A stretch of 32,000 nucleotides of DNA from Candidatus Kuenenia stuttgartensis (lineage in GTDB: Bacteria; Planctomycetota; Brocadiia; Brocadiales; Brocadiaceae), in assembly GCF_900232105.1 (NCBI RefSeq), contig NZ_LT934425.1, positions 3,060,001 to 3,092,000 on the forward strand, given 5' to 3'. Positions 5,857 through 25,716 of the stretch are shown piece by piece. Under the pieces are notes generated by a model that was not told where the DNA came from, did not search any database, and saw only the letters and a program-made list of their open reading frames with translations. Position 1 is the stretch's first letter; each line of letters opens with the position of its first letter. The position numbers were made by a program, and so were the translations under genes.

Positions 5857-5970
5857 GGCTATTTGTATGCAGGTGTAAAATAGTTAAACGGTTCAATTAT
5901 TGTAACTTCTCAACTTATTGATAGTACCTTATCTGTAATTTCTTTGCATTTTTTTGCAAAATATTTAATG

Positions 5971-6150
5971 GTGAAATCCGAAATGCTAAATACGAAACAA
6001 ACTCTAATGACAAAGCATAAAATTCAAAACAAATCCCAAAATACCCAACAATACGAAGCACGAAATACGAAAGATGCGCTTGTTTAGCATTTCAAATCAT
6101 TTTGTCATTAGAATTTGTTTCGGATTTCGTGCTTCGTACTTGTTTAGTTC
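5971..6150. repeat. intergenic heptanucleotide-periodic repeat block forming a long imperfect palindrome
   Basis: Read in 7-nt register the block gives GTGAAAT CCGAAAT GCTAAAT ACGAAAC ... ACAATAC GAAGCAC GAAATAC GAAAGAT ... TTTCGGA TTTCGTG CTTCGTA CTTGTTT. The right arm is the complement of left-arm units (for example GAAATGCTAAA / TTTAGCATTTC and CTAATGACAAA / TTTGTCATTAG). Confidence 0.6.
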
Positions 6151-6211
6151 TGGCTATGCCAGCTTAGGTGTGAACATGAGCATTCATCTGCTTATGTAAT
6201 GAATGTGGGGA

Positions 6212-13558: not shown

Positions 13559-14665
13559 ATGGAAATAAAAGATTTATTACAAGAAATGGTGCGTTTGGAT
13601 GCTTCTGATATTTACATTACCGTTGGGCTGCCCCCTGTGTACAGGAAGGAAGGGAACAACATTCCCGCCGGTCAGGAAATGGTAACGGGCGATGACACCC
13701 GCACCCTTGCCGAATCAATAATGAGCGAAAAACAAAGGGCAGATTTTTACGAACAGATGGAAATGAATTTAGCCCTGTATTATCCGGAACTTGGACGTTT
13801 CAGGGTAAACATTTTTTTTCAGCAAAGGAATGTCGGCCTTGTTATCCGGCAGATAAAGATAAATATTCAGTCTATTGACGATTTACGGCTACCCCAGGTG
13901 TTCAAAGACATTGCCATGACAAAACGGGGGCTTGTGCTGGTAGTTGGCGCAACCGGTTCAGGGAAATCAACCACACTGGCGGCGATGATTGATCACAGGA
14001 ATGAGAATAATTCAGGCCACATAATTACGGTAGAAGACCCCATTGAGTTTGTGCACCGCCATAAAAAGTCTGTTATCACACAAAGAGAAATCGGACTGGA
14101 CAGCTTGTCGTTTCACAATGCACTAAAAAATACCTTGCGCCAGGCGCCGGACGTCATCCTGGTGGGAGAAATCCGCGATACCGAAACAATGGAGTCTGCC
14201 ATTACCTTTGCGGAAACGGGCCATCTTTGTTTGGGAACACTTCATGCAAACAACGCAAACCAGGCGATTGAAAGGATTATAAACTTCTTTCCTCCGGAAC
14301 GGCATGAACAAATATACATGCTCCTCTCGCTGAATCTACGGGCAATAATCTCGCAAAGATTAATTCCAGCAAAAGATGGAAAGCGGTCAGGCGCCTTTGA
14401 AGTATTGCTGGACACCCCAAGGATAAAGGATCTTATCTTAAAAAAGGAAATAGGGTTATTGAAGGAAACAATGGCAAAAGGGAATCAGGAAGGGATGATG
14501 ACCCTGGACCAGTCCTTATTTCATCTTTTAAAAAAGGGGGAAATAACTTACGAAAACGCAATTGCCTACGCCGATAGCGCGAATGATCTGCGTCTGCGGA
14601 TAAAGGTGGAAGGGATTGAAGGTGAGAAAGAAGAAGGGCAGGCTGCGCGTTTTAAATTAAAGTAA
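13559..14665 (+). CDS. pilU: PilT-family ATPase, PilU-like paralog
   Basis: The 368-aa ORF has GATGSGKST, EDPIEF, VILVGEIRD and GTLHAN. Confidence 0.8.
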   Translation: MEIKDLLQEMVRLDASDIYITVGLPPVYRKEGNNIPAGQEMVTGDDTRTLAESIMSEKQRADFYEQMEMNLALYYPELGRFRVNIFFQQRNVGLVIRQIKINIQSIDDLRLPQVFKDIAMTKRGLVLVVGATGSGKSTTLAAMIDHRNENNSGHIITVEDPIEFVHRHKKSVITQREIGLDSLSFHNALKNTLRQAPDVILVGEIRDTETMESAITFAETGHLCLGTLHANNANQAIERIINFFPPERHEQIYMLLSLNLRAIISQRLIPAKDGKRSGAFEVLLDTPRIKDLILKKEIGLLKETMAKGNQEGMMTLDQSLFHLLKKGEITYENAIAYADSANDLRLRIKVEGIEGEKEEGQAARFKLK

Positions 14666-14672
14666 AAAAAAT

Positions 14673-14768
14673 TTTCAACTTAATCGAGGTATATGCATGA
14701 AAAATGAAAAACCAAATTATTGCAATCCAGGGCTTCTTTTGTTGAGTTGAATTTTCTTTCATCTAAGC
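14673..14768 (-). other. possible terminal attC-like site of the cassette array
   Basis: On the minus strand, GCTTAGA overlaps the hicB stop. An AT-rich imperfect inverted repeat follows (TGAAAGAAAA / TTTTTCATTTTTCA), ending in GTTGAAA. The call is weak because the region is AT-rich. Confidence 0.25.
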
Positions 14769-15008
14769 AACTGCTAATTTCTCTTCATTTTGAATAATTA
14801 TCCTGGGATTTTTGCTTTTTGGTGGGATGGGCAATCCCTTTTCTTTTAGTAAACTAATATGTTCCTTCATTCCCCATTTTGCTTTATAAATGCAATCCTC
14901 TATAGAGTGGCCAATGCCACTAAAACCTTCTAAATCTTCTGAATAAAATCCAAAATAGTCAGGTTCTTCAGTTGCCTCTATTATTAATGAATATTCTAAA
15001 TCAATCAT
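14763..15008 (-). CDS. hicB: HicB-family antitoxin
   Basis: The 81-aa ORF has a UPF0150/HicB-like N-terminal fold pattern (YSLIIEATEE..FGFYSEDLEGFSGIGHSIEDC...A...H) and lies directly downstream of hicA. Confidence 0.7.
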   Translation of the reverse strand: MIDLEYSLIIEATEEPDYFGFYSEDLEGFSGIGHSIEDCIYKAKWGMKEHISLLKEKGLPIPPKSKNPRIIIQNEEKLAVA

Positions 15009-15021
15009 TATTTGCCTCCTA

Positions 15022-15213
15022 TTATTTCTTTTTTATTCCTGCTGATTTTAGTACAGCATGACAGGTACCTTTTGGAACTTCTTTTGAACCATGATAGTCT
15101 ACACGAATTAATTTGTTCCATCCAGCTTTTCCATAATATCTTATAGACCTTTTTTCTTTTATAATTTTGAATCCTTCTTTTTCAGGAAGTTTAACAAGTT
15201 CGCTAAATTTCAC
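15022..15213 (-). CDS. hicA: HicA-family mRNA interferase toxin
   Basis: The 63-aa ORF (LVKLPEKEGFKIIKEKRSIRYY...HGSKEVPKGTCHAVLKSAGI) matches the HicA/YcfA pattern. Confidence 0.75.
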   Translation of the reverse strand: MKFSELVKLPEKEGFKIIKEKRSIRYYGKAGWNKLIRVDYHGSKEVPKGTCHAVLKSAGIKKK

Positions 15214-15236
15214 TGTTTATCCTGTATATTAATTTT

Positions 15237-15296
15237 TCATAACGTACTCTTCAGCAGTCGCGGCTTTTTGCGGTCTGCTGGAAGAGATGGTTAAGC
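15237..15296 (-). other. attC-like cassette recombination site (60 bp)
   Basis: The minus strand reads GCTTAAC (R'' type, containing the exonuclease gene stop), then CTCTTCCAGCAGACCGC, AAAAAGC, CGCGACTGCTGAAGAG (imperfect inverted repeat with unpaired bases), then GTTATGA (R' type). Confidence 0.6.
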
Positions 15297-16166
15297 GATG
15301 TCCTCTGCGTTGTTCACCAATTCTTTAAAGTCACTTTCTCTTAAAATTCTGATTTGTTGCCCTTTTGTAATTAGTCGCTCAGCTTTTTGGTGCTTTGAGC
15401 TTTTTTCCTTCCCAGCTAACTTTGTTACATCTTGATCACCAACAACTAAAATTGTAGTTTTTTTTGTGACTCCAGACTCCACATTGCATCCTATTTGGGC
15501 AGCAAGATCTGCCGCGTCTATACGGCGAATTGTCAGCGCCCCTGTAAAAACTAAATTTTCACCATAAAGCACTCCTTCAGGATTACCTTCACGACGAATT
15601 GCACCGCCAGTGCTAATATTAGAAGGATCAATTGGTTGTTTTACTCGCTTAAGCCAATCTTCAATTCCCAAACCTGTTTTGGCTATCGCAGCAATTAAAA
15701 TATGTCCAGAAGCTTTTGCATCCTCCAGCGCATTATGATGTTTAAATTCATAGCCAATTAATTCACAGACATTTTTTAATCCATATCCGCTCCATGAAAT
15801 TTCATTCCAGGTTCGACGAGCAACCCTTGCAGTATCCAACCATTTTGGTTTAGGTATTCTAATGTCGTATTTATCAAAAGCTTTACTAACGGAAACTCTG
15901 TCAAAGTGAGTATGGCATACAGTTAATACGCCATCGAGATATCCGTATATTTTTTGTGCAACCTCATGAATCTTAGGGGACCCCTCAACATCTGTTTCTG
16001 CTATTCCGTGAATATAAATGTTTATTGGATCAAAATAATCTTCTGGATCAATTAAAGAGCACCATTCGTCAATGAGTTTATTATCTTCGAATTTAGCAAT
16101 GCCGATTTGACAGATGGAGGAAATATCTGCATTTGCTGTTTCAACATCAAGTGCTACAAATTTCAA
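15291..16166 (-). CDS. DEDDh 3'-5' exonuclease (DnaQ-like) fused to a C-terminal BRCT domain
   Basis: The 291-aa ORF has Exo I ALDVETA, Exo II region IHGI..D, and Exo III HNALEDA (H-x4-D). The C-terminal segment LVFTGAL...TKKTTILVVGD resembles the LigA BRCT. Confidence 0.75.
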   Translation of the reverse strand: MKFVALDVETANADISSICQIGIAKFEDNKLIDEWCSLIDPEDYFDPINIYIHGIAETDVEGSPKIHEVAQKIYGYLDGVLTVCHTHFDRVSVSKAFDKYDIRIPKPKWLDTARVARRTWNEISWSGYGLKNVCELIGYEFKHHNALEDAKASGHILIAAIAKTGLGIEDWLKRVKQPIDPSNISTGGAIRREGNPEGVLYGENLVFTGALTIRRIDAADLAAQIGCNVESGVTKKTTILVVGDQDVTKLAGKEKSSKHQKAERLITKGQQIRILRESDFKELVNNAEDIA

Positions 16167-16184
16167 CTGGCTGTTCCTCCGGAA

Positions 16185-16556
16185 TCACGGGTTAGCATAT
16201 TTCGTCGCATCGCTTGTATAGATAACTTTCATACCAGTTTTTGAGCAAACAATTTCTCTTTCTTCAGTTAGATCGATGTCTAAATCTTCACCCCTTAGAC
16301 CTTGCCACTCTGCCAAGTAATTAAGGCTACCATACTTTTCTTTTTTTTGTGTTTTTTTCTCTACGCCACCTTTCCAGCCGAGTACTGGCAACTCTCCATT
16401 TTTTGCTTGCTCTGCCAACTCAGGGGATTCGATGCTTCTTCTTCGCCCAACTTCCCAGCATGTGATTAGACCATTGTCTGGTCCCCTCCATCGCTCATCA
16501 AACGAAGGGTTTTCCCTTATAGGCTCATGACAGGAGCGGTAAATACGTTTGCTCAT
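16185..16556 (-). CDS. hypothetical protein co-cassetted with the exonuclease-BRCT gene
   Basis: The 123-aa ORF has no motif I recognise. An 18-nt gap containing GGAGG precedes the exonuclease start, and there is no attC-like site between the two genes. Confidence 0.5.
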   Translation of the reverse strand: MSKRIYRSCHEPIRENPSFDERWRGPDNGLITCWEVGRRRSIESPELAEQAKNGELPVLGWKGGVEKKTQKKEKYGSLNYLAEWQGLRGEDLDIDLTEEREIVCSKTGMKVIYTSDATKYANP

Positions 16557-16579
16557 TAATTTCTCCTTTTGTTTTAGAA

Positions 16580-16631
16580 GCTTAATGTGCGCTTGAGCGG
16601 TACGCCGTCGGGCGCGTTCGTCTCAAAGCGC
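16580..16631 (-). other. attC-like inverted repeat, apparently disrupted at one end by a MITE
   Basis: The plus strand reads GCTTAAT GTGCGCTTGAGCGGTACGCC GTCG GGCGCGTTCGTCTCAAAGCGC, an imperfect inverted repeat. On the minus strand the R'-like core reads ATTAAGC. The partner core is not identifiable beyond the MITE junction. Confidence 0.4.
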
Positions 16632-16763
16632 TATACTCAATCAGACTGGAATCACGGGTTTCTGACGTGCTCATCCATTACCTTCCATGCCCTTTTAATT
16701 GTGCTCAGATTGGGATTATATTCAATCAAACCGAAGCCAGTGGTTTCAGTCTGATTGAGTATA
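16632..16763. mobile_element. 132-bp MITE-like element with 17-bp perfect terminal inverted repeats
   Basis: TATACTCAATCAGACTG at 16632-16648 and CAGTCTGATTGAGTATA at 16747-16763. The terminal TA dinucleotides are compatible with a TA target duplication. It has no coding capacity. Confidence 0.6.
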
Positions 16764-16835
16764 GACGTGAAACATTCACTTTAGCCATTGTTCAATATCG
16801 AACTTGATTGCCTTACCAACATATTCGTTTGACGC

Positions 16836-17234
16836 CTAATCGGAGAATCGACCACTGAGTTTTATGACTGATGAGTAGCCGCGCTGTTTTAATTGCACAG
16901 CCAAGGGTTTTACATCAAACCACATAGTCAGATTCTTTCCGTGTGTCAGCTCACAAGGGAGGCGATGGGTAGAGTTATTGGAAGAATTTATAAACTGGGA
17001 GCCATCGGGGAGCAGCAGTCCCACAGATGATAGCGTGACGGGTTTCTCTCCAATATTTGCGGCTTCCATAAGAATGTGCGTGTCGCTAATTTGTGGCCCA
17101 GCCGTAAGAAAGCCATATGATGTTCTTACTTTTACCCGTGGTGCTTTATCTTGACGCTGAACGACTGCCACATATGTTGACAGAAGTGCTGCATATGCAG
17201 CTACAAGCAGAGTAAGTATGTCTTTCAGTTCCAT
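16836..17234 (-). CDS. small single-pass membrane protein of unknown function (cassette gene)
   Basis: The likely start is the ATG at 17234 (MELKDILTLLVAAYAALLSTYVAVV), with GGAG 7 nt upstream. The longer 150-aa track ORF would begin inside the upstream repeat. There is an N-terminal TM helix, then a beta-rich domain of about 100 aa. Confidence 0.55.
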   Translation of the reverse strand: MELKDILTLLVAAYAALLSTYVAVVQRQDKAPRVKVRTSYGFLTAGPQISDTHILMEAANIGEKPVTLSSVGLLLPDGSQFINSSNNSTHRLPCELTHGKNLTMWFDVKPLAVQLKQRGYSSVIKLSGRFSD

Positions 17235-17251
17235 CAATACTCCGTGTTTAC

Positions 17252-17526
17252 GTCTAACAATGATTATACAGTCTGTATAAAACGTCAAACGCAGACTGTT
17301 TCGATATGTATAAGAAGTTGCCGTGCCTTCTCGTCACATATTGTAACTACTTTCGCATTAAAATAAAAGAGTTGCGTATCATCATAAAAACTTTTCATTA
17401 TTGAAATGATAAAGAACAGTTCGTAATTTTAGACACCGTAACCTCCTTTGCCCAAAACATGGGTGTAGATCGTCGTTTTTACACCGTGATGGCTAAGGAG
17501 TTCCCAGATGGTTTGAATATTTGATT
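17252..17526 (-). repeat. type-A cassette-boundary repeat (copy R1) with an integrase C-terminus relic and a GTTAGAC core
   Basis: It is near-identical to 23915-24190. Minus strand 17524-17429 translates to SNIQTIWELLSHHGVKTTIYTHVLGKGGYGV*. The 3' part has hairpins (ACAGTCTG...TACAGACTGT) and ends ...TATACAGACTGTATAATCATT GTTAGAC. Confidence 0.75.
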
Positions 17527-17742
17527 TTAAGCAAATATCAATCTTTCCCCCTTAGGCTCAGGTATGGGATCACCAAACTCCTTAGCGGTATCAATCCATA
17601 ATTGAATTGCCTCTTTAGCATTTTTTAATGCTTTTTCATGAGTCTCTCCATGAGCTATACAGCCAGGAAGTTCAGGCACTTCTGCTATAAATGCATTGTC
17701 TTCATTACTCCAGTAAATAATAATTTCGTATCTATACATCAA
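17527..17742 (-). CDS. hicB: HicB-family antitoxin
   Basis: The 71-aa ORF (YEIIIYWSNEDNAFIAEVPELPGCIAHGETHEKALKNAKEAIQLWI) is a classic short HicB/UPF0150. It overlaps hicA by 4 nt. Confidence 0.8.
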   Translation of the reverse strand: MMYRYEIIIYWSNEDNAFIAEVPELPGCIAHGETHEKALKNAKEAIQLWIDTAKEFGDPIPEPKGERLIFA

Positions 17743-17972
17743 ATAGTCCCTCCGCGTTTATATTTTACTATAATGTTTCTTACTTGTTTAACCTGATAAG
17801 GCTTTGCCTTATTGCCCTCACGCTGAAGATTAATTTTTTCTATAACAGCTTTCTTTCTGAACATGTGATGGCTGCTTTTAATCCTCATGTCAAAACCGAA
17901 ATGTTTCAACAGGCTGCATAAATCTTCAAATTTAATATTTGCATCCGATGTTCCACAAAGAATCTTAAGCAA
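17739..17972 (-). CDS. hicA: HicA-family toxin
   Basis: The 77-aa ORF has a TTG start. The segment FEDLCSLLKHFGFDMRIKSSHHMFRK fits the HicA pattern (GSHH-type motif). Confidence 0.7.
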   Translation of the reverse strand: MLKILCGTSDANIKFEDLCSLLKHFGFDMRIKSSHHMFRKKAVIEKINLQREGNKAKPYQVKQVRNIIVKYKRGGTI

Positions 17973-18041
17973 GAGCTTCTCATGTTTACCTATTGGTTTA
18001 TTTTATCATTGTTGTTGTGGTTATTTTATTATTTTTTATGC

Positions 18042-18737
18042 ACCGGATAGGTCACGGGCATTGCTGCCCGATTCCCTCCTAAGAACTGTACGTGATAGTT
18101 TCCCATCATACAGCTCAAGCACCTGTTTAAGCTTCTCTTATGGAGAAACCCGCTAATAAATTTCTTCACGTTAATAACTGACTGTCAGTATATCAAAAAA
18201 AAACGAAGGGGGCACCAGGCTTAGCACCCGTCATTTGCATTCCCTTCTTTCAACTGATTCATTCAATGTTCACGTAATAAGGCACCTGCCAACTATCAGC
18301 CTCATTACTGAGCCGGTAATATTTCAACCGGTATCTCTTCCATTACAGAAAAGCATTCGCTTCCTTATGGCATCTCACCCCAGTCCTCCAACAGCATGCC
18401 TCACGGTTAGCCTGCCCATAGGGCGAAGGTCTGAGTTTCCACGTTCCGTATAATTGACCCTGTAAATGACTTAGATGCGTCCTGGACACCGGTGGTTCTA
18501 CAGTTCCGTGCAAGCACGTTAGAGACTTGCAACTTTACCAACATGCTATTCACACTGGGGGAATAACCTTCGACCTGTTAAACCTCGTAGGTCTGTCGCT
18601 CATTGACGATGCGTGCGGACATTCATATATTTTCATCATATCATTCGTTCCTAGCCCTTAACCGGATAGGTTTTCCGGAGGGGTCTGCCTGTCGCCATTT
18701 CGACCCAATTCGGTACGTTGTCCGTGAGGCTTCGCAC
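18042..18737 (-). ncRNA. ORF-less group II intron ribozyme (about 696 nt)
   Basis: The minus strand starts GTGCG at 18737. Domain V at 18116-18083 reads GAGCUGUAUGAUGGGAAACUAUCACGUACAGUUC, with the AGC triad, AC bulge, GAAA tetraloop and G-U wobbles at canonical places. Domain VI at 18079-18045 is a GGAGGG / CCU-A-UCC helix with a bulged A at 18048 and a GCAA-capped hairpin. The last intron nt (18042) is the 6th nt after the bulged A. Only about 150 nt separate the D3-like region from DV, so no RT ORF fits. Confidence 0.8.
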
Positions 18738-18850
18738 CCCGTCGTCAGCGCAATGGTAGCACGCTCACGTAGGAATAAGCAGGAACATGCTTAGTACACT
18801 CAAGAAGAAAATCTTCTTTTAGTACAATCAATTATGCGACATCGTGTCGC

Positions 18851-18980
18851 GACTAACGGCTAGCGTTACCTGCGCTGGGGCGGGCGTGGATTCGGCTTGA
18901 AAGCAGGATTCTGTTGAGGCGTAGAAAAAGGTCAATAAATCGCACAGAATCCCCAGCGTCAGGTGCACGCTTTGTTAGAC
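18851..18980 (-). other. attC-like cassette recombination site (130 bp) of the ApeA-like cassette
   Basis: The minus strand reads GTCTAAC AAAGCGTGCACCTGACGCTGGGG ... CCCCAGCGCAGGTAACGCTAGCC GTTAGTC. The R''/L'' and L'/R' arms are imperfectly complementary, with unpaired bases. Confidence 0.65.
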
Positions 18981-19013
18981 CCCGCCTTTGACCTGCAAGA
19001 CTCTTTGCCGAAT

Positions 19014-20408
19014 TCATTTCTTGATTGTCCGTAAATGCTTCCATCCAGTCAAGTGAGCCTGTATCTTAGGTTCTAAAAGTTCCTTGACTTTTTCATCGGA
19101 AAATCCAATGATTCCCAATAAGTACAACTCAAATATCATTGTCAATACATAAATAATGGAAGGCAACTCTTCTTTTTGGAAAGTCAATTTCCGTTCGTTG
19201 TGATGCACAAATTCATTTCTCGTGTTAGTAACTCTTTTAGCAAAAAGTTCCATATCATCAACAAATCGTCCAGAGGTCTCTTTTTTATTATCAAGAAGTT
19301 CAAAGATTTTTTGTCGAAATCTTTTGTAGTTCGCGTTACTCAATGCGCCTTCCACCCATTCAGTTAATTCAGCAGGAACAGCGCTCAGCACTCTCTCCTT
19401 TTGCTCAACAAATTTATCGTGCGATAAATATTGACCATCAAACAAAATACTGTGCAAAGACTCTAGCGACTGAGCGATATTTAGAAATTTTGTATCAATA
19501 AACAATCGGTTGCTATAGAATAACGAGCGATATAAATGAATTATCGTTTCGTATTTATCAAAGGATGTAAACCATGCAGAGATTTGGTCTCCTGATAAAT
19601 CCTTGAAGGTATATAAAAATTCCTGCGGCAATTTTTGTTTTCTGCTTACAATCGGCTCTATAGGCGTATAGAAGATATTTATTTCTGGATAATGTATCTT
19701 GCCTTCGCCGAGTTCTTGTGGGTTCTCCTTTGAAAAGCCAAACACAGACATAGGATAAGGTATCCTTTGGATTGCAAATTGAAGTAAATACGCGAATATA
19801 TTTAATTGTTTGAATAAATCATCAAATTGAATATCGCCATTTTTGCTTTTTACGACAAGATACGCGCTCTGAGAAATTGTCACTTCAGTTTGTATTATAG
19901 TGTGGTTTGGACCACGACTCGAAAAACCTATGCCAACCTCGAAAGTTTCTCCAACATCGAAAAATTGCGACATAGGTTTTTCATATCTTATTTTTGAGAC
20001 AAATTTGCTGTCAGCAGTATCCACTTCAATTGCAAATCCATAAATATCTACCCAAGCGTCTAAATCTGTGTAACTACCACATAATTGATTAAATCTAATT
20101 TTTTCTTCTGCCTCAAAATGCACCCCTTCAAAAACAAAGTGCACCAAGTATTTACCTCCGCCTAATCCAACCAGCGGATAAGCCCAAGAACTGATAATGC
20201 ACTTGTATAAAGTAATAGATTTTCCCTGTTGAGTAACCCCAAGAATAATAGGCAATTGTTGTATTGGTTCTAGTTTTTTTGAATCAAACACTCCTACCAG
20301 TTCAAGATCGGCACCATCTTCTTGAGAATAAGTTAGTGTTCCAGGCAATTTATTCTCTTCTGAGTCGGGGAGCCACCAGTATCCTTTCAATTCAAATGGA
20401 CTTTGCAT
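19014..20408 (-). CDS. ApeA-like protein: ApeA-type N-terminal domain plus C-terminal HEPN domain (candidate anti-phage/abortive-infection RNase)
   Basis: The 464-aa ORF has an N-terminus (FELKGYWWLPDSEENKLPGTLTYSQEDGADLELVG) matching the hallmark G.WWLP...G.L start of ApeA N-terminal domains. The C-terminal alpha-helical region carries an Rx4H motif (TRNEFVHH). Confidence 0.6.
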   Translation of the reverse strand: MQSPFELKGYWWLPDSEENKLPGTLTYSQEDGADLELVGVFDSKKLEPIQQLPIILGVTQQGKSITLYKCIISSWAYPLVGLGGGKYLVHFVFEGVHFEAEEKIRFNQLCGSYTDLDAWVDIYGFAIEVDTADSKFVSKIRYEKPMSQFFDVGETFEVGIGFSSRGPNHTIIQTEVTISQSAYLVVKSKNGDIQFDDLFKQLNIFAYLLQFAIQRIPYPMSVFGFSKENPQELGEGKIHYPEINIFYTPIEPIVSRKQKLPQEFLYTFKDLSGDQISAWFTSFDKYETIIHLYRSLFYSNRLFIDTKFLNIAQSLESLHSILFDGQYLSHDKFVEQKERVLSAVPAELTEWVEGALSNANYKRFRQKIFELLDNKKETSGRFVDDMELFAKRVTNTRNEFVHHNERKLTFQKEELPSIIYVLTMIFELYLLGIIGFSDEKVKELLEPKIQAHLTGWKHLRTIKK

Positions 20409-20494
20409 TATTTCTCCGCTTACTATGAATCAAACTTTATCTGCAATGATTTTACTTGTTGATCTAAAAAATGAGATTATTGTGCAAGAAGGGG

Positions 20495-20738
20495 GTCGAA
20501 CAATGATTATACAATCTGTATAAAACGGCAAATACAGACTGTTTCAGTATATATAAGAAGTTGCCGTATCTTCTTATAACGCATTGTAACTTATTTCTTA
20601 TAAAGCTTTTGTGTATTTTTTTGCTTTTGTTCATTCCGGTTTATACAGTCTGTATAAACCAACCTACAACCTATCGACTGGACTTCGGACACCGTGACCA
20701 CCTTTGTTCAAGACATGGGTGTAGATCATCGTCATACT
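20495..20738 (-). repeat. type-B cassette-boundary repeat (copy R2) with an integrase C-terminus relic and a GTTCGAC core
   Basis: It is near-identical to 24706-24949. Minus strand 20735-20664 translates to MTMIYTHVLNKGGHGVRSPVDRL*. It contains two copies of the palindrome TTATACAG(A/T)CTGTATAA and the hairpin TATAAGAAG-ATACGGCAA-CTTCTTATA, and ends ...ATAATCATT GTTCGAC. Confidence 0.75.
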
Positions 20739-20853
20739 CAGATATGATAGCAAGATAATAGAAAATTGTTTTTCCCATAAAATCGAGCACTAATAAAACA
20801 AAAATGAAGAAAATTTCAAGCTTTTTAATTTTTTCAGCAAAATAGACAAACAA

Positions 20854-20916
20854 AAAGAAGGGGATACTTCCCTTATTTTCTCACCAAATCAAGCAAGAAA
20901 TATGGGAGGTGTCCCC
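20854..20916. repeat. 63-bp hairpin repeat, copy 1
   Basis: AAAGAAGGGGATACTTCCCTTATTTTCTCACCAAATCAAGCAAGAAATATGGGAGGTGTCCCC. The arms GGGGATACTTCCC / GGGAGGTGTCCCC pair at 11 of 13 positions. The second copy is at 22739-22799. Confidence 0.6.
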
Positions 20917-20974
20917 GATTCACCAAAAACATTCAAATACCCGTATTTCAGCTTTAATAAGCATTACCAACGGT

Positions 20975-21120
20975 AGCTAACTGCGCTGGGATTTACTGGA
21001 GATGTACACGGTGCACGCGGTTGGAATCCTTCCCAGAAACACAATTGATAGAATAATTGATAAGGGATACCGCAGTAATCTGCCGGCATTTCCGTAACAA
21101 TGAGAGCCAGAGTGTTAAAC
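20975..21120 (-). other. attC-like cassette recombination site (146 bp) of the PanA/toxin cassette
   Basis: On the minus strand, GTTTAAC (a perfect RYYYAAC) lies 2 nt after the toxin stop, followed by ACTCTGG... The distal arm ...CCCAGCGCA ends in GTTAGCT. The arms are imperfectly complementary. Confidence 0.55.
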
Positions 21121-21122
21121 CC

Positions 21123-21557
21123 TCATGCGTTTAACATTTCTTTTATATTATTTTCCACAACTGGACTTGCAATAACAGCCTCACGAAGTTTTTCAACAAT
21201 TCCAATAGGCATTTCCGTCTTACATGCTAATTGTTTGCTTTTTAGAAGAGAAACTATTTCTTCAATGGTCTTTTTAATTACCGAGTTACAATCCACGACT
21301 GATTCTTTAGTAAAAATCGCATATTCGGCGTTGTCTATTTTTACCAAAGTATTAGGCATATGACGTCTACGCTTTATAGCTTTTTCGACTTGTGAGGTTG
21401 AATTAACCATGATTAGGAATTTGTCCTTTAGCGGGGCCTTATTCACAACTATAAAATAGTGTGGTTCCGGATTACAAAAGCTTTTTTCTGTAAAGTAGTA
21501 AACAGAACCGGGTTGTATTGTAGACTTGATTTGTATATCGGGCGGAATATCAATCAG
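21123..21557 (-). CDS. MazF/PemK-like toxin candidate, partner of the Panacea-domain antitoxin; start probably non-canonical
   Basis: The track ORF 21123-21446 starts at a GTG with no SD, but the frame is open up to 21578. The extension (..IQPGSVYYFTEKSFCNPEPHYFIVVNKAPLKDKFLIMVNSTSQ) supplies the MazF-like G.(I/V)....(F/L)...RP.(V/L)V(V/L)...(I/V).V.P.TS strands. GGGAG lies 7 nt upstream of the CTG at 21557. Confidence 0.5.
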   Translation of the reverse strand: MIDIPPDIQIKSTIQPGSVYYFTEKSFCNPEPHYFIVVNKAPLKDKFLIMVNSTSQVEKAIKRRRHMPNTLVKIDNAEYAIFTKESVVDCNSVIKKTIEEIVSLLKSKQLACKTEMPIGIVEKLREAVIASPVVENNIKEMLNA

Positions 21558-22191
21558 GAACTTGCTCCCATTGATTTTTCAGTTCCATTTGTTCTTTTAC
21601 ATAATTCAGCATTTCTTCTTTATCATCAGTATCCATAGCAAATAAGTCCTTACCTTCTAATGGGATTAACTGCTCGCTTCCGGACATGGCATCTTTAAAG
21701 AAATCTTCGTAATCCATGTTAAATACAGAACCAATACCTGACTCCAACCTCTTTTCAAACCTCTTCCATTCCGGATATGCGTGGGAAACTTCTGCAAGCT
21801 GAAATTTGTCAAGATGTCCGAAATATTTTATTGCAAACTCCAGCGCTTCAATATCAGAATCTGAGAAAACATTCATATCTACATCATGTATAGACTGAAT
21901 ATCATAAATACCTTGTTTTTCGATATATTGTCTATTATATTCACTCTCAATGGTGTCCAGAAAAGAGGTATTTTCAGCAATATCTTTCGTTTTAGAACCT
22001 ACCGGACCGTATTCCATTGCAACATATTCATCGTTGGTTACCGGTCGACCATATTTGCGCAAGTGGTACCTATCGGCAAAATAAATAAGCTTTATGGCCT
22101 TCATCTTATTTACCTTTCCGCCGGATATTTTTGCAAGGTAGTTCAGGGCTTGAGTAGCTTTTTTGAAATCAAAATTGAAATGGATACACAT
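21550..22191 (-). CDS. Panacea (DUF4065, SocA/GepA-like) domain antitoxin
   Basis: The 213-aa ORF (KMKAIKLIYFADRYHLRKYGRPVTNDEYVAMEYGPV) is the characteristic DUF4065 N-terminal core. It lies immediately upstream of, and overlaps, a toxin-like ORF. Confidence 0.7.
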   Translation of the reverse strand: MCIHFNFDFKKATQALNYLAKISGGKVNKMKAIKLIYFADRYHLRKYGRPVTNDEYVAMEYGPVGSKTKDIAENTSFLDTIESEYNRQYIEKQGIYDIQSIHDVDMNVFSDSDIEALEFAIKYFGHLDKFQLAEVSHAYPEWKRFEKRLESGIGSVFNMDYEDFFKDAMSGSEQLIPLEGKDLFAMDTDDKEEMLNYVKEQMELKNQWEQVPD

Positions 22192-22281
22192 ATATCAAAT
22201 CATGTTCTCGTGTAAATGGTGATAGGATAGAATTATAATGAAAATTCAGGATTTGTTTTGATTTATTATAGGTCATTTTTG

Positions 22282-22693
22282 GTAACTATTCAGCGTAAAC
22301 GATACACGGCTCGTTCCCAAACTCCAGTTTGGGAATGCATTTGTTCGAGAAACTCCGGTTTCTCGCCTATTTATTGATAGATAGGGAATAAAATCACAGG
22401 GTTAAGACAGTTTGTAATTTGTCAAGTCAGACCCTCACTGGAAACAAAGTTTCCAGTGCAATTACGTTCCCAAACTGGACAGACTGGGTCAAATGAACTT
22501 TGTTTTCTCAAAAGTGGGGATAACACCTCACATCTTGCCTGTTTTATACCCTATTTATTACTATTTTTCCATTAAAGTGGGGAATGCATATCGAGAAATA
22601 GGGTAAAATTGCCCATTTGACCCAGTCTGTGGAGTTTGGGAACGAGTTGCGCTCTTATCTCCGGTAGTTTAATAAATTACGCTGAATAGTTAC
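22282..22693. mobile_element. 412-bp non-autonomous element (MITE) with IS66-type ends and an 8-bp target duplication
   Basis: The termini are GTAACTATTCAGCGTAA (22282-22298) and TTACGCTGAATAGTTAC (22677-22693). A perfect direct repeat CATTTTTG flanks it at 22274-22281 and 22694-22701. The terminus matches the end of the IS66-family element at 31273 (GTATCTATTCAGCGTA). There is no ORF, and the interior is packed with perfect hairpins. Confidence 0.7.
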
Positions 22694-22738
22694 CATTTTT
22701 GAGATTTATCAATAATCTTGTTTTGGATAAAGAGGGAT

Positions 22739-22799
22739 AAAGAGGGGACACTTCCCTTATTTTTTCACCAAATCAAGCAAGAAATATGGGAGGTGTTCC
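22739..22799. repeat. hairpin repeat, copy 2
   Basis: AAAGAGGGGACACTTCCCTTATTTTTTCACCAAATCAAGCAAGAAATATGGGAGGTGTTCC aligns along its length with 20854-20916. Confidence 0.6.
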
Positions 22800-22964
22800 T
22801 ATAATTTCATTTCAAGATTTAATGCCCCATGAGGGGATTTTCCCTTGTAGCCTAAAATCACTCCAACTTGACTTGTCAATTCTTCATTTAACAAAATTCC
22901 AGTCCATTGTGTTTTTGTTAAGTCAGTCGCCATTATTCTCTTTTTTATTTGTTTGTCTACCGTA

Positions 22965-23093
22965 CATAACACGAGGCTGAGTTGCGGCGGGCCTAAGGAA
23001 GCACTGCACCAGCTAATTTAAAATAAGATCTGAGAGGGCACCAAACCCAGCCAACAAGCCGGAACCCGCGGTCAACTCCAGCCGATGTTATGT
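22965..23093 (-). other. attC-like cassette recombination site (129 bp) of the DUF433/PIN cassette
   Basis: The minus strand reads ACATAAC ATCGGCTGGAGTTGACCGCGGGTTCC ... GGCCCGCCGCAACTCAGCCTCG T GTTATGT, with long, imperfectly complementary arms. Confidence 0.6.
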
Positions 23094-23160
23094 GGTCGGA
23101 ACTGACCTCGCTTCTTGTGTCTCAATTTCAGAGTAAATATCTTACTATAATTACTATATC

Positions 23161-23493
23161 TTACAAAAATTCAAGATGATTTTTCATCTCATCTGATTCG
23201 AGTACTTGATAAATTAGCATGAGTCCTCTTACAATGTCGCCAATTGGAGTACGTTGGTGAGCATACACGATACCGCTGTGTTTAACACCTCTTGAATGTA
23301 GCTTCAGAAAATCCTCATCTTGCGTAAATATGACTCTTCTTTCTTTCATGGCAAAAGCTATATGTTCCTTATCATCTGCGCCCAACATCCCAGCTTCTTT
23401 TGTCGTCAAAGCATCCACGCCTCGAAGTCGCAATCCTTTCACAACAGAATTGGATACATGTTCGTCTGTATAAAACTTAAGCTTTTTACTCAT
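23161..23493 (-). CDS. DUF5615-type PIN-like (Mut7-C-like) toxin
   Basis: The 110-aa ORF (KFYTDEHVS..VVKGLRLRGVDALT...IFTQDEDF) fits the DUF5615 family that pairs with DUF433. It overlaps the upstream gene by 8 nt. Confidence 0.65.
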   Translation of the reverse strand: MSKKLKFYTDEHVSNSVVKGLRLRGVDALTTKEAGMLGADDKEHIAFAMKERRVIFTQDEDFLKLHSRGVKHSGIVYAHQRTPIGDIVRGLMLIYQVLESDEMKNHLEFL

Positions 23494-23788
23494 TTAATTT
23501 TTGCAATACTTTTGAAGGCGTTTTTTGACGTAATGCTTCCACAAAAGATTCACTCTCCTCAATCGATTTGTCAATTTCAGCGCGATGATCGTAGTAATAG
23601 GCCAAAGCAGCGTAAACATCGGCTAAAGTCAGATCATATTCAGCAGCAATTTCGTCTGCGCTACGTCCCAACAGTTCGTGCCAAAGAACAATATTTTGAA
23701 CGGTGATACGATGTCCAGCTATTCTCGGCTTACCACCGGTGATACCTTCGGTAATCTCGATGTGTCCATCTAAAGTTTTCGTAATCAT
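23486..23788 (-). CDS. DUF433-family antitoxin-like protein
   Basis: The 100-aa ORF (GITGGKPRIAGHRITVQNIVLWHELLGRSADEIAAEYDLTLADVYAALAYY) is the DUF433 signature. Confidence 0.7.
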   Translation of the reverse strand: MITKTLDGHIEITEGITGGKPRIAGHRITVQNIVLWHELLGRSADEIAAEYDLTLADVYAALAYYYDHRAEIDKSIEESESFVEALRQKTPSKVLQKLNE

Positions 23789-23914
23789 TTACTCCACCTC
23801 TCAATTAAAAATCCAAGAATCAGCACACAGAAAAATTTAACTACTTTAGTAAAGAATGGCAAGAAAATGTTCGGCTGACTACTATTTTATTTAGATGATC
23901 GCTGAATACCTGCC

Positions 23915-24190
23915 ACATAACAATGATTATACAGTCTGTATAAAACGGCAAAAACAGACTGTTTCGATATGTATAAGAAGTTGCCGTGCCTTCTTGTCAC
24001 ATATTGTAACTACTTTTCGCATTAAAATAAAAGAGTTGCGTATCATCATAAAAACTTTTCATTATTGAAATGATAAAGAACAGTTCGTAATTTTAGACAC
24101 CGTAACCTCCTTTGCTCAAAACATGGGTGTAGATCGTCGTTTTTACACCGTGATGGCTAAGGAGTTCCCATACGGTTTGAATATTTGATT
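23915..24190 (-). repeat. type-A cassette-boundary repeat (copy R3)
   Basis: It is a paralog of 17252-17526. Minus strand 24188-24093 translates to SNIQTVWELLSHHGVKTTIYTHVLSKGGYGV*. It ends ...ATAATCATT GTTATGT. Confidence 0.75.
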
Positions 24191-24406
24191 TTAAGCAAAT
24201 ATCAATCTTTCTCCCTTAGGCTCAGGTATGGGATCGCCAAACTCCTTAGCGGTATCAATCCATAATTGAATTGACTCTTTAGCATTTTTTAATGCTTTTT
24301 CAGGAGTTTCTCCATGAGCTATACAGCCAGGAAGTTCGGGCACTTCTGCTATAAACGCATTGTCTTCATTACTCCGGTAAATAATAATTTCGTATCTATA
24401 CATCAA
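24191..24406 (-). CDS. hicB: HicB-family antitoxin (second copy, intact)
   Basis: The 71-aa ORF differs from the 17527-17742 product at a few residues (W11R, H35P, A44S). Confidence 0.8.
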   Translation of the reverse strand: MMYRYEIIIYRSNEDNAFIAEVPELPGCIAHGETPEKALKNAKESIQLWIDTAKEFGDPIPEPKGERLIFA

Positions 24407-24637
24407 ATAGTCCCTCCGAGTTTATATTTTACTATAAAGTTTCTTACCTGTTTAACCTGATAAGGCTTTGCCTTATTACCCTCACGCTGAAGATTAATTT
24501 TTTCTATAACAGCTTTCTTTCTGAACATGTGATGGCTGCTTTTAACCCTCATGTCGAAAACCGAAATGTTTCAGCAGGCTGCATAAATCTTCAAATTGAA
24601 TATTTGCATCCGATGTTCCACAAAGAATCTTAAGCAA
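24403..24637 (-). pseudogene. hicA: hicA pseudogene (frameshifted copy)
   Basis: It aligns with 17739-17972 but has a 1-nt insertion (plus-strand GTCGAAAACCG versus GTCAAAACCG, about 24553-24563). No ORF of comparable length remains. Confidence 0.7.
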
Positions 24638-24705
24638 GAGCTTTTCGTGTTTACCCATTGATTCATTTTACCATTGATGTGGTGGTTATTTTATTATTTT
24701 TATAT

Positions 24706-24949
24706 GCCGAACAATGATTATACAGTCTGTATAAAACGGCAAATACAGACTGTTTCAGTATATATAAGAAGTTGCCGTATCTTCTTATAACGCATTGTAA
24801 CTTATTTCTTATAAAGCTTTTGTGTATTTTTTTGCTTTTGTTCATTCCGGTTTATACAGTCTGTATAAACCAACCTACAACCTATCGACTGGACTTTGGA
24901 CACCGTGACCACTTTTGTTCAAGACATGCGTGTAGATCATCGTCATACT
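24706..24949 (-). repeat. type-B cassette-boundary repeat (copy R4), outermost; possible attI-equivalent next to a decayed integrase
   Basis: It is a paralog of 20495-20738. Minus strand 24946-24875 translates to MTMIYTHVLNKSGHGVQSPVDRL*. It ends ...ATAATCATT GTTCGGC. Confidence 0.7.
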
Positions 24950-25716
24950 TAAGAAGATGTTGATAGCTTTTCCATATTGAATATTGAAGGTTTGGCCGTA
25001 TGTTGAACTATCGGAGTGAACGGACAATTCCCCGGACGTGACTTTAACCCCTAAGAGTAAGAAAATGTAACTGCATACTAACGCCTTGCTTATTTCCAGA
25101 CTATTCAAGTGATGAGGAAGGATGATTACGTATGGGTCCGCAGAATTGGACTACCCGCTTCTTCGAGGAGTTTGTTGATTTTAATGCGAGACGTTGCTTC
25201 TTTCTGCGCCATATTCAAAATTTATTTCAATAAAGCAGTTTTTCAAATACAAACTGACACATAACTATCTAATGAATTACCCCTTGATTTGAAAGGTATA
25301 TAAAGGAATGCATTTGCCATAAGCTCAAATAAATACTGCATTTGATGTGCAATATCAAGGAAATTTTTAGGGAATGGGGATGATGGTAGGGAAAACCTCT
25401 TTTATCGTGATGAAGTGTTTTCTGAAATGAATTTTTCCAGGAACCGCAAACGCTCTTTCTTGGGATGTGGTTTGTTCAGATATCGCCATCCGTGCAATTT
25501 TGCATTTTACCAGACTGCGGAGATTGGGGACGACCTGTATTCTTGGTGGATCGTTGCAAAAAAACCGCACCTTGATCCGCCCTTACACGTTTGAAACACC
25601 AGGTGAAACAATATAGTATTTGCAAGCATTGTATATTAACCCTGTCAGGGTTTTTTCATAAAATTAAAGTGTCACAAAAACTTTTGATTGAGTTTTACTT
25701 ACGCTTTTGTTTAAAC

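Follow-up and report, generated by a model that had tools for sequence, protein, structure and literature searches.

A probable co-oriented integron cassette array with repeated attI copies and no integrase gene in Candidatus Kuenenia stuttgartensis

A 32,000-nt stretch of the Candidatus Kuenenia stuttgartensis chromosome (contig NZ_LT934425.1, positions 3,060,001 to 3,092,000), referred to here as the window, was analyzed. An integron cassette array of about 10.4 kb lies on its minus strand at 14673-25108, between pilU and argB, and every credible gene in the block is on that strand. The block is very probably a chromosomal co-oriented ("inverted") integron cassette array in which the integrase gene of the array itself has been deleted down to its last 24-33 codons and cassettes are exchanged in trans. 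An earlier reading of the DNA letters (the sequence-only reading) had proposed an integrase-less cassette array at this position, and this was borne out by attC covariance models, by four copies of an attI site and by cassette turnover relative to a close relative. The array can be described as a cluster of attC sites lacking an integron integrase (CALIN) that has retained attI, because its own integrase gene is reduced to a 3' stump.

A repeat search found a 99-nt unit in four minus-strand copies ending at about 24709, 23918, 20498 and 17255. The copies end in TATACAG(A/T)CTGTATAATCATTGTT and all diverge directly after GTT. The terminus of this attI module is written here as TATACAG(A/T)CTGTATAATCATTG|TT. 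Each module contains the last 24-33 codons of an integron integrase together with the attI site. An integrase relic precedes every attI copy on the minus strand (24952-24878, 24185-24096, 20747-20667 and 17521-17432), for instance TMIYTHVLNKGGHGVRSPVDRL and then a stop codon. All four are C-terminal pieces of a tyrosine recombinase and include the catalytic tyrosine (IYTHV) and the motif GVRSPVD. They were searched by tblastn with IntI1 and with the clade integrases P0114, P0038 and P0032, and the best identity was 91% over 23 residues to P0114. The sequence-only reading had noted integrase relics at the right end, but they are not confined to it. It had also taken the sites at 24707, 23920, 20500 and 17257 for hairpins bounded by RYYYAAC and GTTRRRY cores, and these proved to be the four copies of the attI module.

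The modules are of two types. Type a is 242 nt long, is present in two copies that are 98% identical and begins 24 codons ahead of the integrase stop, reaching as far as G|TT. The two copies of type b (93-97% identity) are joined to hicAB in a repeat of about 780 nt; this type has 33 relic codons and lacks the last integrase codons and the palindrome that follows the stop. The 40-aa relic used as a protein query returned four fragments only. Neither the attI module nor a hairpin designated D5 (see below) matched Rfam at a permissive threshold, and a full-text search found no paper containing the attI core sequence.

The clade to which these integrases belong includes thousands of proteins annotated as integron integrases, with the IntI-specific segment ALDRKYPNAPxEWRWQWVFP...RHH. 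Integrase followed by attI on the same strand is the layout of loci L207-L210. The integrase stop of L208, a Planctomycetes metagenome-assembled genome, is followed by the palindrome TCTTATACAGACTGTATAAGA, as in Kuenenia, and 156 nt after the stop by TATACAGCCTGTCCAATCATTG|TT. Loci L209 and L210 have CTAATCATTG|TT 163 nt past the stop, so that homologous attI sites lie 156-163 nt downstream of a co-oriented integrase gene in all three. The four window repeats are collinear with the stop-to-G|TT interval of L208, and they share their terminus AATCATTG|TT with L209 and L210. From these features the module is identified as the attI of a co-oriented integron plus the stump of its integrase gene. 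The relics are on the cassette strand, and the co-oriented type that had been suggested from the letters was thus supported. A motif is repeated in the palindrome and the core within each attI. It reads TTATGCGGAT in L209 and ACAGNCTGT in both Kuenenia and L208, and such a repeat would be expected of integrase-binding sites by analogy with DR1, DR2, L and R of attI1. The module was also considered as a folded attC-like site, with the "TMIY" codons ACGATGAT as an R''-like partner of the attI end ATCATTGT. This was rejected, since in many metagenome copies the core is preserved although the relic is far shorter or absent. As a separate observation on the clade, many of its integrases (P0038 and others) are annotated at 275 aa, starting with MAEPEVNAFL. 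The frame at L207 5700-6828 is open further upstream, where it has the usual N-terminus LLDQLRETLSSRHHSRRTEQTYCQWVKRFIYFH and no ATG, which indicates a non-ATG start or systematic mis-annotation.

attC sites were searched for with covariance models. Rfam holds no attC model; models were built from independent material, and their E values are rough. The first model was seeded with canonical sites from metagenome contigs and with two sites from locus L025 (Ca. Kuenenia sp. Bin_40), both belonging to cassettes that the window lacks. Its consensus structure, derived from pair frequencies, comprises a 7-bp R box, a partly paired spacer, a 6-bp L box, a bulged A and four more pairs. The model was calibrated and run over the whole 32 kb with filters off. 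The second model rests on 57 matches found in other loci. The modelled family shows strong covariation, with 86% of cells paired compared to 65% in shuffles and 29-41% with slid partners, and with 224 double-sided changes compared to 80 in shuffles. All four attC sites of L025 were recovered, including one outside the training set (34 bits).

Three minus-strand attC sites were detected in the window. The site at 18980-18851 (GTCTAAC...GTTAGTC) scored 39.8 bits (E 6e-8) with the first model and 42.1 bits with the second. The site at 15296-15237 (GCTTAAC...GTTATGA) scored 33.2 bits (E 2.6e-6) and 36.4 bits, and the site at 23093-22964 (ACATAAC...GTTATGT) scored 19.4 bits (E 0.007) and 27.7 bits. 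E values with the second model ranged from 1.6e-8 to 6.7e-5. Neighbouring sites are separated by 3984 and 3555 nt. Neither model gave a further significant match in the 32 kb; the next-best match of the first model (13.6 bits) is a trivial short palindrome inside pilT. Folded as bottom-strand DNA the three sites have paired R and L boxes separated by a spacer, and the R''-L'' arm carries the bulged bases (z of -2.8 for 18980-18851, -3.1 for 15296-15237 and -2.3 for 23093-22964). The model alignments leave unpaired the A of GAC and one further column. A simple scanner for R''/R' with arm complementarity was strand-symmetric and caught terminators and other hairpins. It served for seed harvest only and its output is not used as evidence.

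Four inverted repeats had been offered as examples of attC in the sequence-only reading. The three described above stood up to both modelling and folding. The fourth, at 21120-20975, has no fold (z +0.4) and was matched by neither model, as was also the case for its L025 copy, and it was ruled out as attC on these grounds. The terminal repeat at 14750-14675 likewise has no stable fold (z +1.5) and no match to either model. Only a partial match of 8.8 bits was found at the junction near 16585. The start of the cassette encoding the 150-aa ORF (17258) is complementary at 8 of 12 positions to an R''-like GTCAAAC at 16832-16826, just after the stop of that ORF, and the interval 16832-16585 lacks the pairing and the extrahelical bases of an attC. 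The junction at 16585 and the terminal site are possible decayed junctions only. Seven of nine proposed cassette boundaries coincide with real recombination junctions to within 1-5 nt, while those at about 20980 and 16585 did not pass the covariance models. Of the real junctions three are attC sites and four are attI copies. Seven units are verifiable rather than about nine.

The window was compared to L025. The flanks of the two loci are about 97% identical DNA, and the last cassette is 98% identical and has the same junction to pilU. Between these the loci differ cassette by cassette and do not form a conserved block. The common scaffold is SocA unit - attI - [X] - intron unit - [Y] - hicAB-attI - [Z] - hicA63. 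Slot X is occupied by ApeA in the window, and its L025 counterpart encodes a 227-aa methyltransferase. Slot Y is empty in the window and holds a MazEF-like pair in L025. Slot Z holds the 150-aa ORF, the 123-aa ORF and an exonuclease in the window, while in L025 it contains two ORFs, of 95 and 285 aa. The points at which homology ends (15243, 17258, 18857 and 20501) are the G|TT of an attI or attC R', and at the attC R' breaks (15243 and 18857) it is found on one side only. Strain-specific cassettes lie directly behind internal attI copies (two copies compared). The hicAB unit of L025 has a canonical attC before it and G|TT with another cassette after it.

The starts of cassettes behind attI were compared to the complement of the R'' of the same cassette. 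Complementarity was 10/12 for the DUF433 cassette and 9/12 for the ApeA cassette of the window, and 11/12 for the methyltransferase and 9/12 for the cassette with the 95-aa and 285-aa ORFs of L025. The chance of at least 9/12 is about 0.01 per cassette. Such complementarity is the hallmark of formerly circular units. The comparison of the two sequences indicates integrase-mediated exchange after the divergence of the window strain and L025, and the integrase responsible presumably acts in trans. Homologous recombination between the long repeats probably also contributes.

The following mechanism, which is established for integrons, is proposed here. An integrase supplied in trans would recombine the folded bottom strand of attC with another attC or with double-stranded attI, with crossover between G and TT, and circular cassettes would enter preferentially at attI. 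There are four attI-plus-relic copies. The first heads the array and the other three are internal, each ending a unit (hicAB twice and the SocA unit once) in the place of attC. A cassette of this attI type could arise when recombination between an upstream attC and an attI excises a circle with attI as its site, and such a circle could enter any attC. Each internal attI is then a further insertion point, as is directly visible from the different cassettes that the window and L025 carry immediately behind each of two internal attI copies. Toxin-antitoxin cassettes would stabilize the array, and ApeA and the exonuclease would be defence-type cargo, as judged from family membership. A group II intron and an element resembling a miniature inverted-repeat transposable element (MITE) have altered the array later.

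The attI module was also found outside Kuenenia. Metagenome contigs were scanned for exact matches to a 24-nt attI core, which was present in at least 120 contigs, and these come from many environments. In the 80 loci among the matches listed, the sequence past GTT varies by locus and is mostly of the TTRRRY form (GTTAGGC, GTTATGC, GTTCGGC). attC matches in those loci were on the same strand as the core in 54 of 54 cases, with 49 downstream and five upstream. Upstream of the core, among the matches listed, there are deleted integrase genes (L087, L132), short relics (about 20 loci) and unrelated ORFs. Two same-strand cores 240-1400 nt apart occur in six loci, and a core on the opposite strand occurs in none, among the matches listed. 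A single small ORF lies between two same-strand attI modules in L141, L155, L128, L097, L119 and L130. The cassette end of L155 is an attC-like left arm, GCTAACAAAGCATTTGCAC, fused to the attI module. The module is shorter in eight loci, owing to the loss of 33 nt between TATA repeats. Cassettes ended by attI and internal attI copies occur in metagenome loci and are therefore not peculiar to the Kuenenia genome. It is tentatively suggested that the integrase 3' end plus attI (TATACAGACTGTATAATCATTG|TT core) may be more than a remnant and act in the co-oriented clade as a widespread mobile alternative to attC. It would close cassettes, disperse within arrays and give rise to multi-headed arrays in which each internal attI admits new cassettes and possibly serves as an internal promoter. 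Such a mobile module would explain the occurrence in at least 120 contigs, the usual lack of an adjacent intact integrase and the occasional double occurrence around a small ORF.

A number of points weigh against a cassette array exchanged in trans. The window contains no integrase gene and no PF00589-type ORF; no relic reaches the IntI-specific additional domain, and tblastn found no N-terminal or central IntI segments upstream of the relics. Among the metagenome loci listed, about 45 have over 1.1 kb upstream of the exact 24-nt core, and no intact integrase lies beside the core in any of these. The integrases of L208 and L209, which have homologous attI variants downstream, have aberrant N-termini. 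Among the clade integrases inspected only that of L207 is a complete reading frame, and its attI end is more divergent. There are only three canonical attC sites in 10 kb, and several units (20980, 16585 and 14700) lack a detectable site at the downstream end. A simple consensus scan does not support a promoter in attI, as one copy only reaches the threshold (17288-17260, a sigma-70-like TTGACG-17-AATCAT). Homologous recombination between repeats of 240-800 nt could yield some of the rearrangements without an integrase.

This last point leads to an unlikely alternative, that of a fossil array in which the strains differ through homologous recombination, deletion, gene conversion between repeats or the import of a foreign array, with no exchange by an integrase. 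It would agree with the missing integrase and the decaying hicA toxin genes, and the direct repeats of 242 nt (98%) and about 780 nt (93-97%) are good substrates for homologous recombination. The difference at the 3' junction of the intron is in fact best explained by recombination between intron copies. The breaks at attC R' (15243 and 18857), however, have homology on one side only, and each unique cassette has an attC of its own and begins with the complement of its R'', which points to site-specific entry as circularized units. They also lie exactly behind attI copies, the preferred insertion point. A different explanation would make the conserved module mainly a regulatory, promoter-bearing element without an ORF that drives the downstream cassettes and is not itself a recombination site. 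A TATAAT 7 nt before G|TT in the core, the TTGACG-17-AATCAT of one copy, a conservation far above that usual for attI or attC and the co-orientation of all cassettes with the module are consistent with this. It is nevertheless improbable. Identity stops exactly at GTT in over 80 independent contexts, the bases downstream fit TTRRRY and match the R'' of the following cassette, and the -35 region is not conserved across loci. Promoter and recombination roles are also compatible, since the known cassette promoter (Pc) is near attI (PMC12901181). An ordinary toxin-antitoxin or defence island unrelated to integrons, with terminators as its inverted repeats, is scarcely tenable even though the gene content resembles that of defence islands and a simple inverted-repeat scanner finds hairpins elsewhere in the window. 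The strand-specific attC models match only in the array, integrase relics and attI are present, and cassettes turn over one by one with breaks at G|TT.

A cassette array with exchange in trans is close to known systems. CALINs are defined as at least two attC sites in the same orientation, less than 4 kb apart, with no neighbouring integron integrase (PMC4889954), and remnants of intI pseudogenes were found near 15 of 279 CALINs (Cury et al. 2016, PMC4889954). The Kuenenia array has three minus-strand attC sites, each less than 4 kb from the next, and no integrase within, as assessed with our own models and not with those of IntegronFinder. It resembles a CALIN or degraded sedentary chromosomal integron in its co-oriented attC cluster without an integrase, its intI remnant, its strain-variable cassettes and the unknown, toxin-antitoxin and defence functions of these cassettes. 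It differs from a CALIN in keeping a complete attI, in four copies, and in having three canonical attC sites over 10 kb, and these are heterogeneous compared to the homogeneous sites of large sedentary integrons. As regards a complete integron, an attI ending in G|TTRRRY is present and an intI gene with the additional domain is absent.

An intI of K. stuttgartiensis is reported to cluster with the co-oriented Treponema group (PMC3607928). Co-oriented integrons such as those of Treponema denticola, Chlorobium and Planctomycetes share the layout of the array, in which intI, here as relics, is on the cassette strand and attI is downstream of the 3' end of intI. The distance from the integrase stop to attI is about 160 nt in L208 and L209, which belong to this clade. 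The array differs from them in that its integrase is not intact. We know of no description of repeated internal attI copies in co-oriented integrons.

In class 1 and class 2 mobile integrons some cassettes have a partial attI in the place of attC, and IntI1 recombines these cassettes (Gonzales Machuca et al. 2026, PMC12901181, citing Partridge 2009). The delta-attI-type architectures include attC-ORF-attI and attI-ORF-attI, and Pc in known integrons is within or very close to intI, near attI (PMC12901181). Three Kuenenia units (24709-23919, 18039-17256 and the one whose end is at 20499) are of this type, as attC is replaced at their downstream end by an attI or partial attI ending at the crossover G. 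The Kuenenia modules differ in their size of about 165-265 nt, in carrying the 3' end of an integrase and in belonging to an unrelated attI family. They are located in a chromosomal non-resistance array and are abundant in environmental metagenomes. The array is of a kind already known, a CALIN or degraded chromosomal integron with attI-type cassettes, and the unusual part is the repeated conserved module of attI plus relic.

The array is of interest as a recently active cassette array with toxin-antitoxin and anti-phage cargo in Kuenenia, a key anammox organism for wastewater treatment. It also provides a natural chromosomal example of attI-type cassettes, which so far have been characterized only in clinical mobile integrons. 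If repeated attI is general in the co-oriented clade, the array model of one attI, one insertion point and decay with distance from Pc needs revision. Detection by attC only (e.g. IntegronFinder) would mis-segment arrays with repeated attI.

The units are described here from right to left, all on the minus strand. The longest integrase relic (24875-25108, tblastn) is a degenerate frame of 77 codons, the final 25 of which (24952-24878) read LSMTMIYTHVLNKSGHGVQSPVDRL*. It is followed by attI copy 1 (24710-24874), a complete type a copy with its G at 24712 and repeats D2 and D3, collinear with the attI of L208. This copy comprises the post-stop palindrome GGTTTATACAGACTGTATAAACC, a hairpin (ATAAGAAG..CTTCTTAT) and then ACAGTCTGT..TATACAGACTGTATAATCATTG|TT. 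The attI-type hicAB cassette at 23919-24709 contains a frameshifted hicA (24657-24403), hicB (24406-24191) and an integrase relic (24185-24096), and ends in a partial attI of type b with G|TT at 23921. HicA and HicB were identified here through the duplicate at 17256-18039, where Pfam assigns them; the copies are 93-97% identical. The unit has different neighbours in L025. A canonical cassette at 22964-23918 encodes DUF433 (23788-23486) and a PIN-like DUF5615 protein (23493-23161; both Pfam) and is closed by the attC at 23093-22964.

The composite unit at 20499-22963 ends in attI copy 3, which is of type a with its G at 20501. It contains a 57-aa ORF (22972-22799), a D5 hairpin (22812-22737), the MITE-like insertion (22695-22281), a SocA/Panacea gene (22191-21550), a 107-aa ORF (21446-21123), the unsupported inverted repeat (21120-20975), a second D5 (20915-20852), an integrase relic (20747-20667) and attI (20666-20499). 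No attC model match was found inside this unit in the window or in its L025 copy. The canonical cassette at 18851-20498 encodes ApeA with an N-terminal domain and HEPN (20408-19014; Pfam and PADLOC) and ends in the attC at 18980-18851. It is followed by a leader and a group II intron (18040-18856), the leader being 57 nt from G|TTAGTC and the intron running from 18799 (GUGUA...) to 18040.

The second attI-type hicAB cassette (17256-18039) contains hicA (17972-17739), hicB (17742-17527) and an integrase relic (17521-17432), and ends in attI type b with G|TT at 17258. The hicA toxins of the duplicated hicAB unit are decaying, with a frameshift at 24403-24657 in the window and an in-frame TAG at 11057-11308 in L025. 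The hicB genes are intact. A three-ORF unit at 15237-17255, closed by the attC at 15296-15237, encodes the 150-aa ORF (17288-16836), the 123-aa ORF (16556-16185) and a DEDDh exonuclease-BRCT protein (16166-15291; Pfam and PADLOC). Spacer hairpins (16764-16592) and the possible decayed junction ATTAAGC (16591-16585) separate the first two ORFs. The spacer at 16592-16764 consists of a hairpin with 32-nt arms (88% complementary) and a 70-nt loop and an adjacent GC-rich hairpin, and may be a palindromic element inserted inside a decayed attC. The last cassette (14673-15236) encodes hicA (15213-15022; Pfam) and an 81-aa HicB-like ORF (15008-14763). A possible decayed R'', ATTTTTCATgca at 14705-14694, is complementary at 9/12 positions and has lost the AAC core.

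Two elements within the array had not been included in the sequence-only reading, the group II intron and a 415-nt MITE-like insertion. The intron (18799-18040, minus strand) is 760 nt long and matches Rfam RF02012 (70.4 bits) and RF00029 (60.6 bits). Its interior has no ORF of more than 56 aa and no reverse-transcriptase ORF. It is oriented like the cassettes, lies 57 nt past the attC of the ApeA cassette and has a small hairpin (AAGAAGAtttTCTTCTT) immediately before it; the 5' exon ends in ...TCTTCTTGA. The intron and its 5' flank are 98.5% identical to L025 12050-12878 and the 3' exon is different, being in the window the hicAB cassette from the eighth base. A differing 3' exon behind the same intron suggests the loss of a cassette by recombination between two intron copies.

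Group IIC-attC introns target the bottom strand of attC at TTGT/T, run against the direction of cassette transcription and encode a reverse transcriptase, and recombination between copies of such introns has been proposed to reshape cassettes (PMC7923331, summarising Leon & Roy; Quiroga). The Kuenenia intron is similar in its location inside a cassette array just past a stem-loop. It does not share the insertion features of that group (PMC7923331), as it has the orientation of the cassettes, lies 57 nt beyond attC and not in R'' at TTGT/T, and has no reverse-transcriptase ORF.

The MITE-like insertion (22281-22695) has perfect 19-nt terminal inverted repeats (TGGTAACTATTCAGCGTAA) and a flanking duplication of A4-5. 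It is located in the leader of the SocA gene and is absent from the otherwise 98% identical stretch of L025. The D5 hairpin is 57-76 nt long (GGGGACACCTCCC, a 31-nt loop and GGGAAGTGTCCCC) and is found in the window at 22737-22812 and 20852-20915 and in L025 at about 16750, 15507 and 14034. It flanks gene units in both arrays. D5 has no AAC or GTT cores and matched neither the attC models nor Rfam.

The genes of the block are short and mutually unrelated and, by Pfam and PADLOC assignment, mostly of toxin-antitoxin or defence type, as the sequence-only reading had it. The cargo families are HicA/HicB (three times), DUF433 with DUF5615 (PIN-like), SocA/Panacea, ApeA-HEPN (PADLOC PDC-S58, E 2e-81) and DEDDh exonuclease-BRCT. 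From the pilU side the gene order is hicA with its 81-aa partner, the DEDDh exonuclease-BRCT gene, the ORFs of 123 and 150 aa, hicAB, ApeA, the 107-aa ORF, SocA/Panacea, DUF5615 with DUF433 and the second hicAB with its frameshifted hicA. The two plus-strand housekeeping blocks described as flanking the minus-strand genes were also found. The left flank encodes ligA, pmbA/tldD, pilT and pilT/U, the last of which ends at 14665, and the right flank encodes argB from 25790 and then argD. The relatives of PilU place the window in Candidatus Kuenenia (anammox, Planctomycetota). In K. hertensis, Brocadia and other relatives the gene after pilU is a tldD paralogue, with no argB in the available flank, and the array is therefore placed at a lineage-specific synteny breakpoint.

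A short minus-strand frame, MAQKEATSRIKINKLLEEAGSPILRTHT, lies at 25130-25212 between argB and the first integrase relic and may be a gene relic. We take it to resemble the N-terminus of type I restriction or helicase proteins. A dispersed repeat at 5922-6168, in an intergenic region among the housekeeping genes of the window, is 84-94% identical to L025 16778-16996 in the cassette array and includes a near-perfect hairpin of 106 nt (6043-6148).

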